Sequence record: OR896820.1
Length of the DNA stretch: 64,000 bases
Strand: one strand, 5' to 3'
Origin: Escherchia phage Stokescottia
In this document: positions 47,099 through 60,848 of the stretch, one piece after another
Numbering within the stretch: the stretch's first letter is position 1
How the letters are laid out: each line of letters opens with the position of its first letter
Notes under the pieces: model-generated
Databases searched by the model: none
What the model was told of the DNA's origin: nothing
The model's input: only the letters and a program-made list of their open reading frames with translations
Translations under genes and position numbers: made by a program

Positions 47099-47488
47099 TT
47101 AGTCACTTAACCCCGGAACATAGATCCCAACACGGTTTAATTGTTCTTTAGCTTCTTTGAGTATATCTGGAGTGTACTCCCAAATATCATCTTCCACCTG
47201 TAAAAGATGGGGCGAACAACCGTCATCAGGCACACGACATATGGCCAAACCACGTGGATGGAACAAAGAGAAATTTAGGGCAACAATTAAACCCATAGCA
47301 GACAATTCATTCCAATCCAATTCCCATTCCCCGGCGTATCCAGACAGGAAAATGCCAATGCATGGATCATCTATTTGCTGCTCCGGAAAAGTGAAGGAGG
47401 CTTGTCTTACCCCCAACCAACGTTGTAGCAGCTTCTCCGCACGTTTCACCAAACTAGGGTCAATCTGACGCCAATATACTTGTTCCAT
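47099..47488 (-). CDS. Hypothetical protein, tandem paralog A
   Basis: 129 aa; shares 'PCIGI', 'MGL..ALN..LF.P' and 'PGL' anchors with the adjacent ORF. Confidence 0.35.
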   Translation of the reverse strand: MEQVYWRQIDPSLVKRAEKLLQRWLGVRQASFTFPEQQIDDPCIGIFLSGYAGEWELDWNELSAMGLIVALNFSLFHPRGLAICRVPDDGCSPHLLQVEDDIWEYTPDILKEAKEQLNRVGIYVPGLSD

Positions 47489-47497
47489 CCTGCCTCC

Positions 47498-47926
47498 TTA
47501 AGCAGTTAAACCTGGGATCATATACCCGAAACGTCGAAGTTTCTGAATCCCATCATTTACTTCTTCCGGTGAGTAAGACCAACCATAACGTTCATTAACC
47601 TGAAAACCAGGAGATTCACTAGTTTTATAGTTAACAACGAGGCGATGCTTAGCAGGCATAAACAGCTTATAGTTTAACGCAAAAACTAAGCCCATTTCAT
47701 CTAACTCTTTCCAGCCGACAATCTCTTCAAGACCCTCCTCTACCTGAACAATTAAACCAATACAGGGGGCCTCATCAATATCATCTTTAAAAGCAAAGGA
47801 GATTTCGTTATTCTCACACCATATTTTCAAAGAGTTAATAGCCTTATTATACAGGCTAGCTGGGAGAGTACGCCAAAAGTTAACCAAAATTGGGTTAGCT
47901 TCTTTAGAGAATACATTATTAAACAT
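47498..47926 (-). CDS. Hypothetical protein, tandem paralog B
   Basis: 142 aa; paralog of 47099-47488. Confidence 0.35.
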   Translation of the reverse strand: MFNNVFSKEANPILVNFWRTLPASLYNKAINSLKIWCENNEISFAFKDDIDEAPCIGLIVQVEEGLEEIVGWKELDEMGLVFALNYKLFMPAKHRLVVNYKTSESPGFQVNERYGWSYSPEEVNDGIQKLRRFGYMIPGLTA

Positions 47927-47928
47927 AT

Positions 47929-48441
47929 TTACACCTTAAATTGTTGTAGGGCTTTACACATTTCAAGATCTGGACTAAATTCTAACATATAGCTAACAGC
48001 TTTTAAATCTTGAAGATTTATTCCAGTCCTACCGTTGACTATAACCGTTGGATACTGATACATCATAGCACCCGCATCGTCAAGCACACACCAATGTTTG
48101 AGCCTATGCTTTTCAACGAAGCGAAGAACAGAATTACCCCTAGATAATCCACCCCCGGTAAAATCCGTTGTACCAAGAAAACGATCGATAAGGCCTAATC
48201 CGGTCATAATCTGAACATTCTCCATCTCATTTCTGACAGAGAACCAAGATGATACTCCAACAATCATTATCGGGGAAGGACGAATAAAGTCCTGAAAAGC
48301 CTTGAGAAGCGGTTTGAAAACCCAGTCACTCCCAAAGAAAATCTTTTCATCATCAGGTGCATGATGGTGGGAGATGCTCGAATTGAGCACCCCATCAATG
48401 TCTAGAAAAATAATTGGAGTATTACTTATTTCCTGATACAT
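47929..48441 (-). CDS. HAD-superfamily phosphatase-like protein
   Basis: 170 aa; motif I 'FLDIDGVL'; start overlaps the Sir2-like gene end. Confidence 0.5.
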   Translation of the reverse strand: MYQEISNTPIIFLDIDGVLNSSISHHHAPDDEKIFFGSDWVFKPLLKAFQDFIRPSPIMIVGVSSWFSVRNEMENVQIMTGLGLIDRFLGTTDFTGGGLSRGNSVLRFVEKHRLKHWCVLDDAGAMMYQYPTVIVNGRTGINLQDLKAVSYMLEFSPDLEMCKALQQFKV

Positions 48442-49237
48442 AAGGTCTATCCCCTAAATGAGCTTCTACACGAGCAATAAAATCAGGATCACTGAAAGCA
48501 TCTACCGCACCTTTACTCCAGTAAGGGATACCGCGTTCTTCCAGCTGGTACATCTCACTACGAGTCATACCTTGATAGCCCGGTTCCACCGCTAGGGCAC
48601 TATCATAGTAGTTAACAACCATTAGCTTGGCAGCAGTCAAATTAAGAACAGGAAATAATTCCCAGTAGAAATTAATTACTTGGTTAGAGCAACCAACCAC
48701 AATGATCATATCTTGACTGGTAATACCATCAAAAATATTGTACATCTCCGCATATGCTGGAGCATGCTCTCCAAAGAAGATTACATTAGGTTTAACCCAT
48801 TTATAATCATCTGGATCAATAGAATTGTATCCTACATCAATAATCCGTTTATTGCTACTATTGTAGCTATCAGCTACAACAACCTCTTTTAAATATCCGT
48901 GAATGTGCAGAATGTCACTATGTGAAACGCCAGCACGCTCAATAAGGTCATCAACGTTGGTAGTCAAGTTTACTACTTGACCTGGATATTGTTTATACCA
49001 TTCACCAATACGCAAATGCGCAAGATTGGGTTCAACAGTTTTTAGCTCTTCACGACGCTTGTTGTAAAACATATGGGTTTTATGATAAAAATTACCACGA
49101 AAGGCATGAATATTACATACTTCTTCTAGATCATAATCATCCCACAGTGCTTTACCACTAGCAGTATCAGTACGAAAAGCTCGTACACCACTTTCAACAC
49201 TCAAACCTGCACCGCTAATAATAATTAATCTACGCAT
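48422..49237 (-). CDS. Sir2-family NAD-dependent protein (sirtuin-like, no zinc ribbon)
   Basis: 271 aa; sirtuin motifs 'GAGLSVESGVRAFR', 'TTNVDDL', catalytic 'HG', 'PNVIFFGE', 'VVGCS'; no CxxC pairs. Confidence 0.65.
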   Translation of the reverse strand: MRRLIIISGAGLSVESGVRAFRTDTASGKALWDDYDLEEVCNIHAFRGNFYHKTHMFYNKRREELKTVEPNLAHLRIGEWYKQYPGQVVNLTTNVDDLIERAGVSHSDILHIHGYLKEVVVADSYNSSNKRIIDVGYNSIDPDDYKWVKPNVIFFGEHAPAYAEMYNIFDGITSQDMIIVVGCSNQVINFYWELFPVLNLTAAKLMVVNYYDSALAVEPGYQGMTRSEMYQLEERGIPYWSKGAVDAFSDPDFIARVEAHLGDRPYVSGNK

Positions 49238-58245: not shown

Positions 58246-58599
58246 ATGTTTACAATATTATTATTTGTTATATTCTTCCTGAAACATTTTATGGCTGATT
58301 ATCCCCTCCAAACTCCATACATGTTAAGGAAGACTCACAAAATAGGATGGAAACTTCCATTACTAACCCATTCTCTAGTACATGCTGGACTAACCTTTAT
58401 AATTCTTACTATGTTCACATCACTAGGAATGGCTATAACTTTAGCTATAATGGAATTAATCCTACACTTTATCATAGATTACTGGAAAGCACAACGCTGT
58501 AAATACGATATAAGTGATTCCAAGTTTTGGATAGCTTTAGGATTTGATCAGTTACTCCATTACTTAACCTATGCTCTCATAATCTTGATTATAATTTAA
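58246..58599 (+). CDS. Small hydrophobic membrane protein
   Basis: 117 aa, AT-rich, several hydrophobic helices. Confidence 0.3.
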   Translation: MFTILLFVIFFLKHFMADYPLQTPYMLRKTHKIGWKLPLLTHSLVHAGLTFIILTMFTSLGMAITLAIMELILHFIIDYWKAQRCKYDISDSKFWIALGFDQLLHYLTYALIILIII

Positions 58600-58638: not shown

Positions 58639-58667
58639 TTGCTTATTTAGTGAAATTTAAATATAAT
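58639..58667 (+). promoter_or_regulatory. Promoter (TTGCTT-N17-TATAAT)
   Basis: Hexamers with 17-nt spacing upstream of gene 58693-58974. Confidence 0.55.
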
Positions 58668-58974: not shown

Positions 58975-59450
58975 TGTCGGTTTTCCACATTTACACAGAT
59001 GGTGCTTGTAAGTCTAACCCAGGTCCAGGTGCTTGGGGTTTTATTGTCTATGATGATAACGACGATCGTTTAGGTTCTAAATCTGGTTATAATCCTAAAA
59101 CTACAAATAATGAGATGGAACTCACAGCTATTGTAGAAGCTCTACGTTGGTCCGTTAAAAAAGATAATAGACCAATTGCTATCTATACTGACTCTGCTTA
59201 TTGCAAAAACGGCATGGAAAGTTGGATGTTTTCTTGGCAAAGGAAAGGCTGGAAGAAAGCAGATGGTGAAGTTCCTCTTAATCTAGAACTTTGGCAGGAA
59301 GCATTTAAATTAACACAGCAGTATATCAACTTTCATAATACTAATCCTACCTTTATTAAGGTTAAAGGACATTCTGGTATTAGTGGTAATGAAGCTGTAG
59401 ATGCATTGTGTAATACTGTTATTACTGAGCAAGAACTTGCCGAGATGTGA
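58974..59450 (+). CDS. rnhA: Ribonuclease H (start at MSVFHIYTDG; the track uses 58962)
   Basis: RNase HI motifs 'YTDGACKSNPGPGAWG', 'EMELTA', 'IYTDSAY'. Confidence 0.8.
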   Translation: MSVFHIYTDGACKSNPGPGAWGFIVYDDNDDRLGSKSGYNPKTTNNEMELTAIVEALRWSVKKDNRPIAIYTDSAYCKNGMESWMFSWQRKGWKKADGEVPLNLELWQEAFKLTQQYINFHNTNPTFIKVKGHSGISGNEAVDALCNTVITEQELAEM

Positions 59451-59470
59451 TAAATAAATTAAAAATTTTC

Positions 59471-59499
59471 TTGCTTAAAGCCCTCTAATTTAGTATAAT
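59471..59499 (+). promoter_or_regulatory. Promoter (TTGCTT-N17-TATAAT) for the NADAR gene pair
   Basis: Hexamers with 17-nt spacing, then GAGGAG RBS. Confidence 0.6.
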
Positions 59500-59526
59500 A
59501 TTCATATTGAAAGTGAGGAGGGCTTT

Positions 59527-59811
59527 ATGCGGATTTATAACTCAAATTCATTAGGATTTAAACCATTGAGAAAACGTGCACAATCACCTCGTCAAATAAG
59601 AAAGGCTAATATTGGTGAGCCAGAGACACGACTTCCACCTCCTCCAGAACAACGTTTAGTTTATCTGGACGAAGAATTAGCGGAATGCGAAAGAAAAGCT
59701 CAAGAAGAGATTGAGCGTAAGAAAATGTGTACTGCTCCAGCCTACTCCAAAGGGGCTTATCAGTATATCTATACAGCCGAGGAGGCTAAAGATGCGGGGC
59801 GTAAAAAATGA
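59527..59811 (+). CDS. Hypothetical protein, translationally coupled to the NADAR gene
   Basis: 94-aa ORF whose stop overlaps the NADAR ATG (ATGA). Confidence 0.3.
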   Translation: MRIYNSNSLGFKPLRKRAQSPRQIRKANIGEPETRLPPPPEQRLVYLDEELAECERKAQEEIERKKMCTAPAYSKGAYQYIYTAEEAKDAGRKK

Positions 59812-60257
59812 AGATTACTGAATTTAAAGGTACTTATAGTTTCTTATCAAACTTTTATTTATCACCAATTACTTTCGAATATCTAAATGAAATATGGCAT
59901 GCTGATACTGTAGAACATGCTTTTCAGGCTATGAAATCCGACCAAAAAGATGATGTAGCTCATGTACTGCGCTCCCTAAATGCAGGAGTTGCCAAACGTA
60001 GAGGACGTAAATTAACTCTACGCTCTGACTGGGATAAGGTAAAAGATGATGTAATGCTAGAGCTTTTACGGTTAAAGTTTGCAATCCCTGATTTGAGAGA
60101 CAAACTGTTAGCAACAAAAAATGCAACTTTGATCGAAGGAAATACCTGGGGAGATACATATTGGGGTGTTTGCCGAGGCATTGGGGATAATACTCTAGGT
60201 GTTCTTTTGATGCAGGTAAGGTCTGAAATTAAAAGAAGCTTACAGTTAATAAATTAA
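59808..60257 (+). CDS. NADAR-domain (YbiA-like) protein
   Basis: 149 aa; 'FLSNFY', 'EHAFQAMK', 'KF..P.LR..LLAT....L.E....DTYWG'. Confidence 0.65.
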   Translation: MKITEFKGTYSFLSNFYLSPITFEYLNEIWHADTVEHAFQAMKSDQKDDVAHVLRSLNAGVAKRRGRKLTLRSDWDKVKDDVMLELLRLKFAIPDLRDKLLATKNATLIEGNTWGDTYWGVCRGIGDNTLGVLLMQVRSEIKRSLQLIN

Positions 60258-60265
60258 AAATTCAT

Positions 60266-60294
60266 TTGCTAAACGCTTCAAATTCTCGTATAAT
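60266..60294 (+). promoter_or_regulatory. Promoter (TTGCTA-N17-TATAAT)
   Basis: Hexamers with 17-nt spacing upstream of gene 60333-60848. Confidence 0.6.
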
Positions 60295-60332
60295 ATACTT
60301 CATAAATTGATAAACAAAAAGGAAAACAAATA

Positions 60333-60848
60333 ATGGCTAAGCAGAAAAACGCAAAAACTCAAGCAGCTCCGGCAGTTAAAACTTTCCCGCAGACCGAGGC
60401 TAATCGCAAAGATCGCCTGGAACGTCACCTGCGTAAGCATCCTACCGATACCCAGGCTGCGCAAGCACTGAATAATCCGGCTCCGATTCGTCAGAAGCCT
60501 AAAGCTAAAAATGCCACCCGTAAATCCTACAAAATGGTTATGTATGTAGAAAATTACGGCCACAAATCTGTCCCAGTTTCCCTGAGCTTTAACGCTGGGG
60601 CTGAATTGTTCTCTCGTAATGGTATGTCTATGAAAGACTATGAGAAGGCAGTTAACCAGAAGCGTAAACCAACAGCAGATGTATTGCGTGATACTCGTGG
60701 ACAGTTTGGTTCTGTTAAGCCAAATATCTTTGGCGTAGAGTATAGTAAAGATAATGTTCGTGCTCTGTGTTACGGTGTAGGCATTAAGTTCACGGGTGAT
60801 TCTGCTCGTAAATCTGCTAAACCAGCTCGTAAGCGTAAAGCGAAGTAA
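60333..60848 (+). CDS. Hypothetical basic protein, probably abundant
   Basis: 171 aa, Lys/Arg-rich termini, high-expression codon bias, own promoter. Confidence 0.35.
   Translation: MAKQKNAKTQAAPAVKTFPQTEANRKDRLERHLRKHPTDTQAAQALNNPAPIRQKPKAKNATRKSYKMVMYVENYGHKSVPVSLSFNAGAELFSRNGMSMKDYEKAVNQKRKPTADVLRDTRGQFGSVKPNIFGVEYSKDNVRALCYGVGIKFTGDSARKSAKPARKRKAK

Follow-up and report, generated by a model that had tools for sequence, protein, structure and literature searches.

A Bas32-type adfN gene, a probable counter-defence against DarT1, carried as an accessory cassette behind the T5.090 homologue of Escherchia phage Stokescottia

Within the DNA of Escherchia phage Stokescottia (record OR896820.1), a stretch of 64,000 nucleotides (nt) referred to here as the window, two open reading frames (ORFs) with ATG starts overlap on the plus strand: one of 94 amino acids (aa) at 59527-59811 and one of 149 aa at 59808-60257. 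The 149-aa gene is very probably a Bas32-type adfN, a counter-defence gene against DarT1 that is carried as an accessory cassette and expressed through the platform of the 94-aa ORF, a homologue of T5 gene T5.090. A preliminary description had assigned the 149-aa protein to the NADAR/YbiA family, proposed that it counters guanine ADP-ribosylation by DarT-type toxins, and placed it with an upstream ORF of unknown function in a two-gene unit with its own promoter. The biology of adfN, including this very protein, was already published in 2024-2025, and the element is not new. Three points are added here: the gene moves as a defined cassette that is swapped together with the 3' end of T5.090, unrelated accessory ORFs have repeatedly docked at the T5.090 stop codon through a 4-nt overlap, and T5.090 is one of a large family of small phage proteins of no known function. 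The features that the text refers to are as follows.

59471-59499, plus strand: T5-type early sigma-70 promoter, with -35 element TTGCTT (59471-59476), a 17-nt spacer and -10 element TATAAT (59494-59499).
59516-59521, plus strand: Shine-Dalgarno sequence AGGAGG of the 94-aa ORF, 5 nt before its ATG.
59527-59811, plus strand: 94-aa T5.090 homologue (phrog_4593, E=2.5e-53), function unknown.
~59737-60250, plus strand: mobile cassette, approximate extent, comprising the last ~25 codons of the T5.090 homologue and the whole NADAR gene.
59808-59811, plus strand: ATGA junction, predicted termination-reinitiation site, where the stop of the T5.090 homologue overlaps the NADAR start.
59808-60257, plus strand: adfN (Bas32 type), probable 149-aa NADAR-family DNA ADP-ribosylglycohydrolase, assigned by Pfam, alignment, AlphaFold2 modelling and near-identity to Bas32/Bas33.
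Active-site codons of adfN, plus strand: E36 at 59913-59915, K43 at 59934-59936, E110 at 60135-60137, D116 at 60153-60155 and W119 at 60162-60164.
60266-60294, plus strand: next T5-type promoter, TTGCTA-17-TATAAT, a homologue of T5 P-H207 that drives the DUF7022 gene.

The 149-aa protein matches the Pfam NADAR model PF08719 over residues 9-142 (E=6.3e-22; 79 bits, gathering score 35.1), and its closest solved relatives by phmmer are E. coli YbiA (2B3W, E=2.8e-15) and the NADAR protein of P. nicotianae (8BAU, E=6.8e-7). An AlphaFold2 model made with 43 homologues reached a predicted local distance difference test score (pLDDT) of 97.2 and a predicted template modelling score (pTM) of 0.91, and on this model the protein is predicted to have the YbiA-like alpha-helical core with small flanking beta-sheets. 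Foldseek aligned the model to YbiA 2B3W with a template modelling (TM) score of 0.82 (E=4e-9, 36% identity) and to ADP-ribose-bound 8BAU with a TM score of 0.75 and a root-mean-square deviation of 2.2 Å; the match to the DarT1-associated NADAR of G. lovleyi (8BAT) was weak (TM score 0.48, E=0.96). Key residues of the family are E43, K50 and E125 in 8BAU, which are equivalent to E88, K95 and D171 in the NADAR protein of E. coli C7, where mutating them abolishes activity (Schuller et al. 2023). The window protein has their equivalents in E36 and K43, both within TVEHAFQAMK, and in E110, within LIEGN. Furthermore, the ADP-ribose-contacting residues K63, R67, W75, D116 and W119 are all present. 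Across the 43 homologues E36, K43, K63, E110, D116 and W119 are invariant and W75 is kept in at least 90%, and the family assignment made in the preliminary description is upheld down to its catalytic residues.

A 12-nt direct repeat, AAAGATGATGTA, occurs twice on the plus strand inside the NADAR gene, at 59946-59957 and 60042-60053, 96 nt apart. In three T5-like contigs a variant allele of 117 aa (P0046; locus L048, 3501-3854) has lost, in frame, exactly the intervening 32 codons (residues 47-78). This deletion, which probably arose by repeat slippage, removes K63, G66, R67 and W75, and therefore the variant has probably lost its function.

Functional evidence comes from a nearly identical protein. 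The window NADAR has the same sequence as bas33_0070 of phage HildyBeyeler (Bas33; 100% identity); two substitutions, T9A and K104E, separate it from bas32_0066 of phage IrisVonRoten (Bas32; 99% identity). The protein was named AdfN^Bas32 by Johannesman, Carlson & LeRoux (bioRxiv 2024; Nat Commun 2025;16:1598). AdfN^Bas32 alone neutralised DarT1 toxicity in E. coli, and its ectopic expression brought RB69, T5 and Bas25 back to full titre on DarTG1 hosts; T5 was not rescued on the thymidine-specific DarTG2, and the authors state that AdfN^Bas32 needs no additional phage factor (Nat Commun 2025;16:1598). T5, which is inhibited by DarTG1, has no NADAR gene in its record. For the window phage, neutralisation of DarT1 and rescue of plaquing on DarTG1 hosts may be expected by carry-over from the 99-100% identical protein. 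The chemistry of AdfN would follow from its family and conserved residues, and the in vivo phenotype is published for the same protein. The counter-defence role proposed in the preliminary description agrees with this published phenotype. The Bas32 locus has the same order of rnh, T5.090 homologue, NADAR and DUF7022 genes, the same 4-nt overlap and the same promoters, and differs in nothing of substance apart from the phage backbone; the AdfN^Bas32 paper is silent on the upstream gene, on the overlap and on where the cassette begins and ends. The GenBank records of the Bas32 and Bas33 NADARs (loci L005 and L004, 2501-2947) differ at T9A and K104E, and the publication calls the two proteins identical.

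Comparison with other characterized NADAR proteins helps to place the window protein. The residue equivalent to position 110 is Glu in the YbiA subfamily and Asp in the DarG1 type, and His has been described for T4-type phage NADARs. AdfN^T4 (T4 gp30.3) is likewise an orphan NADAR encoded by a phage, and it undoes the guanine ADP-ribosylation that DarT1 makes on phage DNA. It differs in belonging to another NADAR clade, so that the authors' BLAST and PSI-BLAST searches from AdfN^T4 missed the Bas32 protein (Nat Commun 2025;16:1598), in the His described for its type in place of E110, and in being unable to neutralise DarT1 outside T-even infection, as the Bas32 type can. DarG1 (BC4488 subfamily; E. 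coli C7 and G. lovleyi 8BAT) shares the Glu and Lys of the ExxFQxxK motif, and hydrolysis of guanine-N-linked ADP-ribose would be common to both. Unlike DarG1, the window NADAR has no adjacent darT1, and no DarT toxin or ADP-ribosyltransferase (ART) gene lies among its neighbours (rnh, the T5.090 homologue and the DUF7022 gene). It also lacks the N-terminal extension, its first conserved motif starting from residue 8, and has Glu instead of Asp at the third catalytic position; with the weak match to 8BAT, these features set it outside the DarG1/BC4488 subfamily.

E. coli YbiA, an N-glycosidase of riboflavin intermediates, has the same minimal core fold and the same Glu, Lys and Glu residues. 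The window protein could accordingly be viewed as a mainly metabolic, YbiA-type N-glycosidase acting on riboflavin-pathway intermediates or similar compounds, with its anti-DarT1 effect a side activity of over-expression. YbiA is indeed the best match among solved structures, E110 is the YbiA-type Glu at the subfamily-defining position, and many public records label the gene in this way: 'swarming motility protein YbiA', 'GTP cyclohydrolase II', 'DUF1768' and 'NADAR family protein' are all in use, and one recent record has 'antitoxin-like enzyme'. The NCBIfam model TIGR02464, an equivalog of YbiA for the riboflavin-intermediate N-glycosidase, scores 66.8 bits, which is below its curated cut-off of 73.7 bits. 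Moreover, YbiA is chromosomal and LexA-regulated and gives no protection from DarT1 in vivo, whereas AdfN^Bas32 restored three phages to full titre. The window gene is an accessory early gene of a lytic phage, beside genes of DNA replication and nucleotide metabolism; it is present or absent among near-identical genomes, as is typical of anti-defence cargo, and no riboflavin genes lie near it. We regard a mainly metabolic role as very improbable and retain the assignment to Bas32-type adfN.

A related question is the breadth of the adfN target. The enzyme might also reverse other nucleic-acid ADP-ribosylation, such as cytidine-linked ADP-ribose or the products of other ART toxins, so that its target in Salmonella and E. 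coli would be wider than DarTG1. This is compatible with counter-defence against DarT1, and we consider it possible but doubtful. Passages in two reports point in its direction: removal of cytidine-linked ADP-ribose placed by pierisin-family toxins is described for YbiA-type NADARs (PMC12945103), and a YbiA-like NADAR is described as antitoxin to YarT, a toxin unrelated to DarT (PMC11125620). In addition, AdfN^Bas32, unlike AdfN^T4, shows no dependence on DNA or phage context. On the other side, substrate data for the AdfN^Bas32 protein are limited to DarT1 products, and DarTG2 is not countered by it.

The gene next to adfN is not a dedicated partner. The 94-aa ORF is a homologue of T5.090, a core early gene of T5, to which it is 90% identical over residues 1-92 (YP_006918.1), with the same place after rnh and the same promoter. 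Its match to phrog_4593 in PHROGs, a family of unknown function, covers positions 1-92 of 92. The preliminary description was therefore right that the function of this ORF is unknown, but the implied orphan partner is a T5.090 homologue, which in T5-like phages mostly occurs without a NADAR gene. T5 itself has rnh (T5.091), a promoter, T5.090 (92 aa), the promoter P-H207 and T5.089 in this order, with no NADAR and no gene at all between T5.090 and P-H207. The window gene differs from T5.090 in its last ~25 codons, which have diverged (...IYTAEEAKDAGRKK, against ...VSDEEQAKMVGR in T5) and end in the ATGA overlap.

A profile search extended the T5.090 family to 611 clusters at 50% identity, all of them proteins of at most 165 aa with a shared module at the C-terminus. 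The module reads E.E.AERE..AQ.EIERKK...APAY.KG.YQY....GRK, or in a fuller rendering E.E.AERE..AQ.EIERKK...APAYSKGAYQYI....GRK, and is invariant or nearly so in 29 family sequences, in which it follows hypervariable basic N-termini. Family members typically lie in nucleotide-metabolism regions of phages. No Pfam or NCBIfam model describes the family, an NCBIfam search with the 94-aa ORF gave nothing, and a literature search on T5.090, T5.089, YP_006918 and phrog_4593 returned no papers. AlphaFold2 modelled the 94-aa protein with moderate confidence (pLDDT 72, pTM 0.35). In the model, residues 1-48 lack regular secondary structure and are followed by a helix (49-66), a beta-hairpin (70-81) and a short helix (84-89), and Foldseek found no match to it in the PDB below E=2. 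The isoelectric point (pI) is 11.6 for the N-terminal half and 5.4 for the C-terminal module, and a putative role as a small nucleic-acid or host-factor binder is a reasonable guess. Matches of the 94-aa ORF to NADase_NGA (Pfam E=0.066, 13 bits against a cut-off of 30.5) and to polyubiquitin (PDB phmmer E~0.007, with no stretch passing alone) were taken as chance. The label 'DksA C4-type' given to the upstream gene in one GenBank record was rejected because the protein has only two Cys, no CxxC pairs, and Cys that are not conserved in the family. A coding sequence annotated at the T5.090 position in Klebsiella phage Torridgeon is in another frame than the tblastn match and was therefore not used. 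An apparently distinct allele of 94 aa with no NADAR downstream (P0022) proved to be a frameshifted T5.090.

The window region is 97-98% identical to many Salmonella and Escherichia T5-like phages (Demerecviridae, Markadamsvirinae), and its backbone is closest to Salmonella phages X5 and ABTNLsp9. The gene order is thymidylate synthase, a DUF3307 ORF, a 93-aa ORF, ribonuclease H (rnh), the 94-aa ORF, NADAR and the DUF7022 gene (60333-60848), which is a homologue of T5.089. A tblastn search with the 94-aa protein matched 550 phage records, and in 438 the identity was at least 80%. A threshold of at least 95% identity gives 95 phage records for the NADAR protein, the next-best phage NADARs being below about 60%, and the same number, 95, for the 94-aa ORF. 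Thus adfN is an accessory gene, present in roughly one in five T5-like phages (about 22%).

Loci from Markadamsvirinae make the unit of exchange clear. Among the 33 that were scored, nine have NADAR and 24 do not. In all nine NADAR loci the upstream gene is the 94-aa allele ending ...SKGAYQYIYTAEEAKDAGRKK, which runs into the ATGA overlap and lies 521 nt from the DUF7022 gene. All 24 of the others have a 92-aa allele ending ...NKG[AG]YQYVSD[AE]EQAKM[VI]GR, with 83 nt separating it from the next gene. The 94-aa allele is thus perfectly linked to the presence of NADAR; no such linkage is seen for the rnh and DUF7022 alleles. The edges of the cassette were taken from the mismatch profile against NADAR-less relatives with near-identical flanks. 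The left junction, at ~59737, is inside the conserved APAY..YQY coding stretch, and the right junction, at ~60250, is in an A-rich element upstream of the P-H207-type promoter. Together, the mismatch profile and the allele linkage identify the mobile unit as the T5.090 3' end plus NADAR, and this cassette is exchanged by homologous recombination between T5-like genomes. No compositional anomaly was found in the cassette, which has a G + C content of 36-40%, like its flanks. Since it brings its own diverged T5.090 3' end, the two genes must already have been neighbours in the donor phage.

The promoter upstream of the pair was also correctly noted in the preliminary description. It lies behind an A/T-rich block, all 29 nt are invariant in T5, Bas28 and Bas32, and the T5 record annotates a promoter at the corresponding place, upstream of T5.090, as it does P-H207. 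T5 early promoters of the TTGCT/TATAAT type are strong sigma-70 promoters. The pattern TTGCT-N18-TATAAT has 11 sites in the window against 0.10 expected, a number reached in 0 of 100 shuffles; these counts and the invariance in T5 indicate that the promoter is more than a chance match. A generic sigma-70 scan missed it because TTGCTT agrees with TTGACA at only three of six positions. The promoter belongs to the T5.090 homologue and predates NADAR. The 11 exact sites of the pattern span 39235-63478 on both strands and mark T5-type early promoters; where checked, they lie just 5' of ORF starts, as at 58639, 59471, 60266 and 62123.

Translation of the two genes may be coupled. In the ATGA tetranucleotide at 59808-59811, the NADAR ATG (59808-59810) overlaps the TGA of the 94-aa ORF (59809-59811), as the preliminary description had observed, and the junction is identical in 10 of 10 related NADAR-carrying loci that were inspected. 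The ribosome-binding site of NADAR is weak, a GGGG 8 nt before the ATG, and the 94-aa ORF has the strong AGGAGG. The weak Shine-Dalgarno sequence would be consistent with dependence on translational coupling. No RNA hairpin masking the NADAR start stands out, the predicted fold of the ATGA region being no better than shuffled sequence (z=-0.22). On the plus strand, no terminator-like site was found within 59450-60330, neither ORF being followed by one before the next promoter (60266-60294), and so transcription probably continues into the DUF7022 gene. The two-gene unit of the preliminary description thus keeps its overlap and a promoter, with the qualifications that the promoter is that of T5.090, that the unit is open at its 3' end, and that a functional two-protein system is not indicated.

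The last of these qualifications deserves closer attention, since the 94-aa protein and NADAR could in principle form a two-component counter-defence, in which the small protein would recruit the hydrolase to single-stranded DNA or the replisome, or would inhibit DarT1. Each of the 95 AdfN^Bas32-type genes from the phage database directly follows a T5.090 homologue, the ATGA is invariant in the 10 loci mentioned above, and the T5.090 C-terminal allele that comes with the cassette shows that the adjacency already existed in the donor. The very basic N-terminal half of the 94-aa protein (pI 11.6) and the unrelated NADAR allele of Salmonella phage UTK0009, which likewise abuts T5.090, would also fit. 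Set against these points, T5.090 occurs without any NADAR in about 340 T5-like records, and the members of the 611 family clusters are all small stand-alone proteins. Distant members of the family, as far as inspected, come from regions of phage nucleotide metabolism and have no NADAR neighbour, and none was found around five distant T5.090 homologues.

The NADAR genes that lie elsewhere point the same way. In UTK0009 (vB_SenS_UTK0009, OQ359889.1; locus L047, 3501-3950) a 60%-identical NADAR, of a type found only in this phage within the phage database, starts 5 nt after rnh and is upstream of the T5.090 promoter, within which its 3' end lies; it was assigned to the rnh unit and flanks T5.090 on the side opposite to adfN. 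The NADAR of Vibrio phage phi 3, 36% identical, is upstream of rnh. Neither near it nor near the NADARs of Aeromonas 4_4572, Proteus Isfahan, Stenotrophomonas Moby or contig L049 was a T5.090 module found. An overlapped downstream protein of 147 aa in Stenotrophomonas Menderavirus was considered as an independent T5.090-NADAR pairing and rejected, as it is not a NADAR; the NADAR of Menderavirus lies elsewhere, with no T5.090 module within 4 kb. Two of the distant NADARs, those of L049 (3501-3950; 61% identical) and Moby (locus L050, 3977-4462; 38%), are beside queuosine/7-deazaguanine-type genes (PTPS/QueD, GTP cyclohydrolase I and a YAcAr protein), a neighbourhood that may matter because DarT1 targets guanine.

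Furthermore, the overlapped slot behind T5.090 also takes other cargo. In Serratia phage Kamaji (85-aa ORF), contig L044 (71-aa ORF) and Stenotrophomonas phage BUCT608, ORFs unrelated to NADAR occupy it through an ATGA or ATGAG overlap. The Kamaji (locus L009, 2779-3036) and L044 (3279-3494) ORFs are mutually unrelated and have no family match; in each the ATG lies over the stop of a T5.090 homologue ending ...AGRKK or ...AGRKR, and both are candidates for further accessory or anti-defence cargo.

Because unrelated cargo uses the same slot, NADARs occur elsewhere without T5.090, and NADAR alone is sufficient, the pairing is best read as expression hitch-hiking and not as a two-protein system. 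The activity of AdfN^Bas32 by itself in uninfected E. coli, where no phage factor is supplied, lends no support to a functional pair, and RB69 and Bas25, whose T5.090-homologue content is unchecked, were also rescued. We therefore find the two-component explanation improbable. Equally hard to credit is a broader form of it, in which the T5.090 family is tied to handling damaged or ADP-ribosylated DNA and NADARs have repeatedly landed beside T5.090, inherited with its 3' end, through cooperation during infection.

For Bas32-type adfN expressed through the T5.090 platform, the following course of events is proposed. After DNA entry, host RNA polymerase would start at the T5.090 promoter (59471-59499), probably early in infection. 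Ribosomes would load at the Shine-Dalgarno sequence of the 94-aa ORF, stop at the UGA within AUGA and, as the overlap and the weak NADAR site suggest, re-initiate on adfN. AdfN would then hydrolyse the guanine-linked ADP-ribose that DarT1, of the host system DarTG1, places on single-stranded phage DNA, and replication would be restored. The 94-aa protein would lend its promoter and ribosomes to adfN and would not be required for the action of the enzyme. Several observations weigh against this proposal. Translational coupling and early timing have been deduced from sequence alone. The protein is nearer in sequence and fold to YbiA, which does not protect E. coli from DarT1, than to DarG1. The published evidence comes from ectopic expression; from this and from homology, both the requirement for the gene in its native phage and the enzymology of the clade itself are extrapolated. 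Finally, the adjacency of T5.090 and NADAR is older than the spread of the cassette in Tequintavirus, which leaves some room for a functional link.

These results have some practical relevance. They show that a genuine anti-defence gene can be picked out by reading sequence alone, and knowledge of the cassette helps to predict the sensitivity of T5-like therapeutic phages to DarTG1. Annotation can benefit as well, because most public records still carry 'swarming motility protein' or 'GTP cyclohydrolase II'.

No tRNA genes were found in the window. Between thymidylate synthase and the 93-aa ORF, a DUF3307 ORF of 117 aa lies at 58246-58599 on the plus strand (Pfam E=5.3e-12). An ORF of the same length, 354 nt, is at the same place in Bas28, and no ORF is there in T5, BB1, slur09 or Bas32/33; it looks like a further accessory insertion in the same early region. 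Elsewhere in the window, a SIR2-family protein, the homologue of T5.102, is encoded on the minus strand at 48422-49237 (Pfam E=4.2e-25), adjoined on that strand by genes for a HAD_SAK_2 protein (47929-48441) and two DUF7415 proteins (47498-47926 and 47099-47488). This group forms a cluster of NAD-linked enzymes that shares the genome with the ADP-ribose hydrolase.

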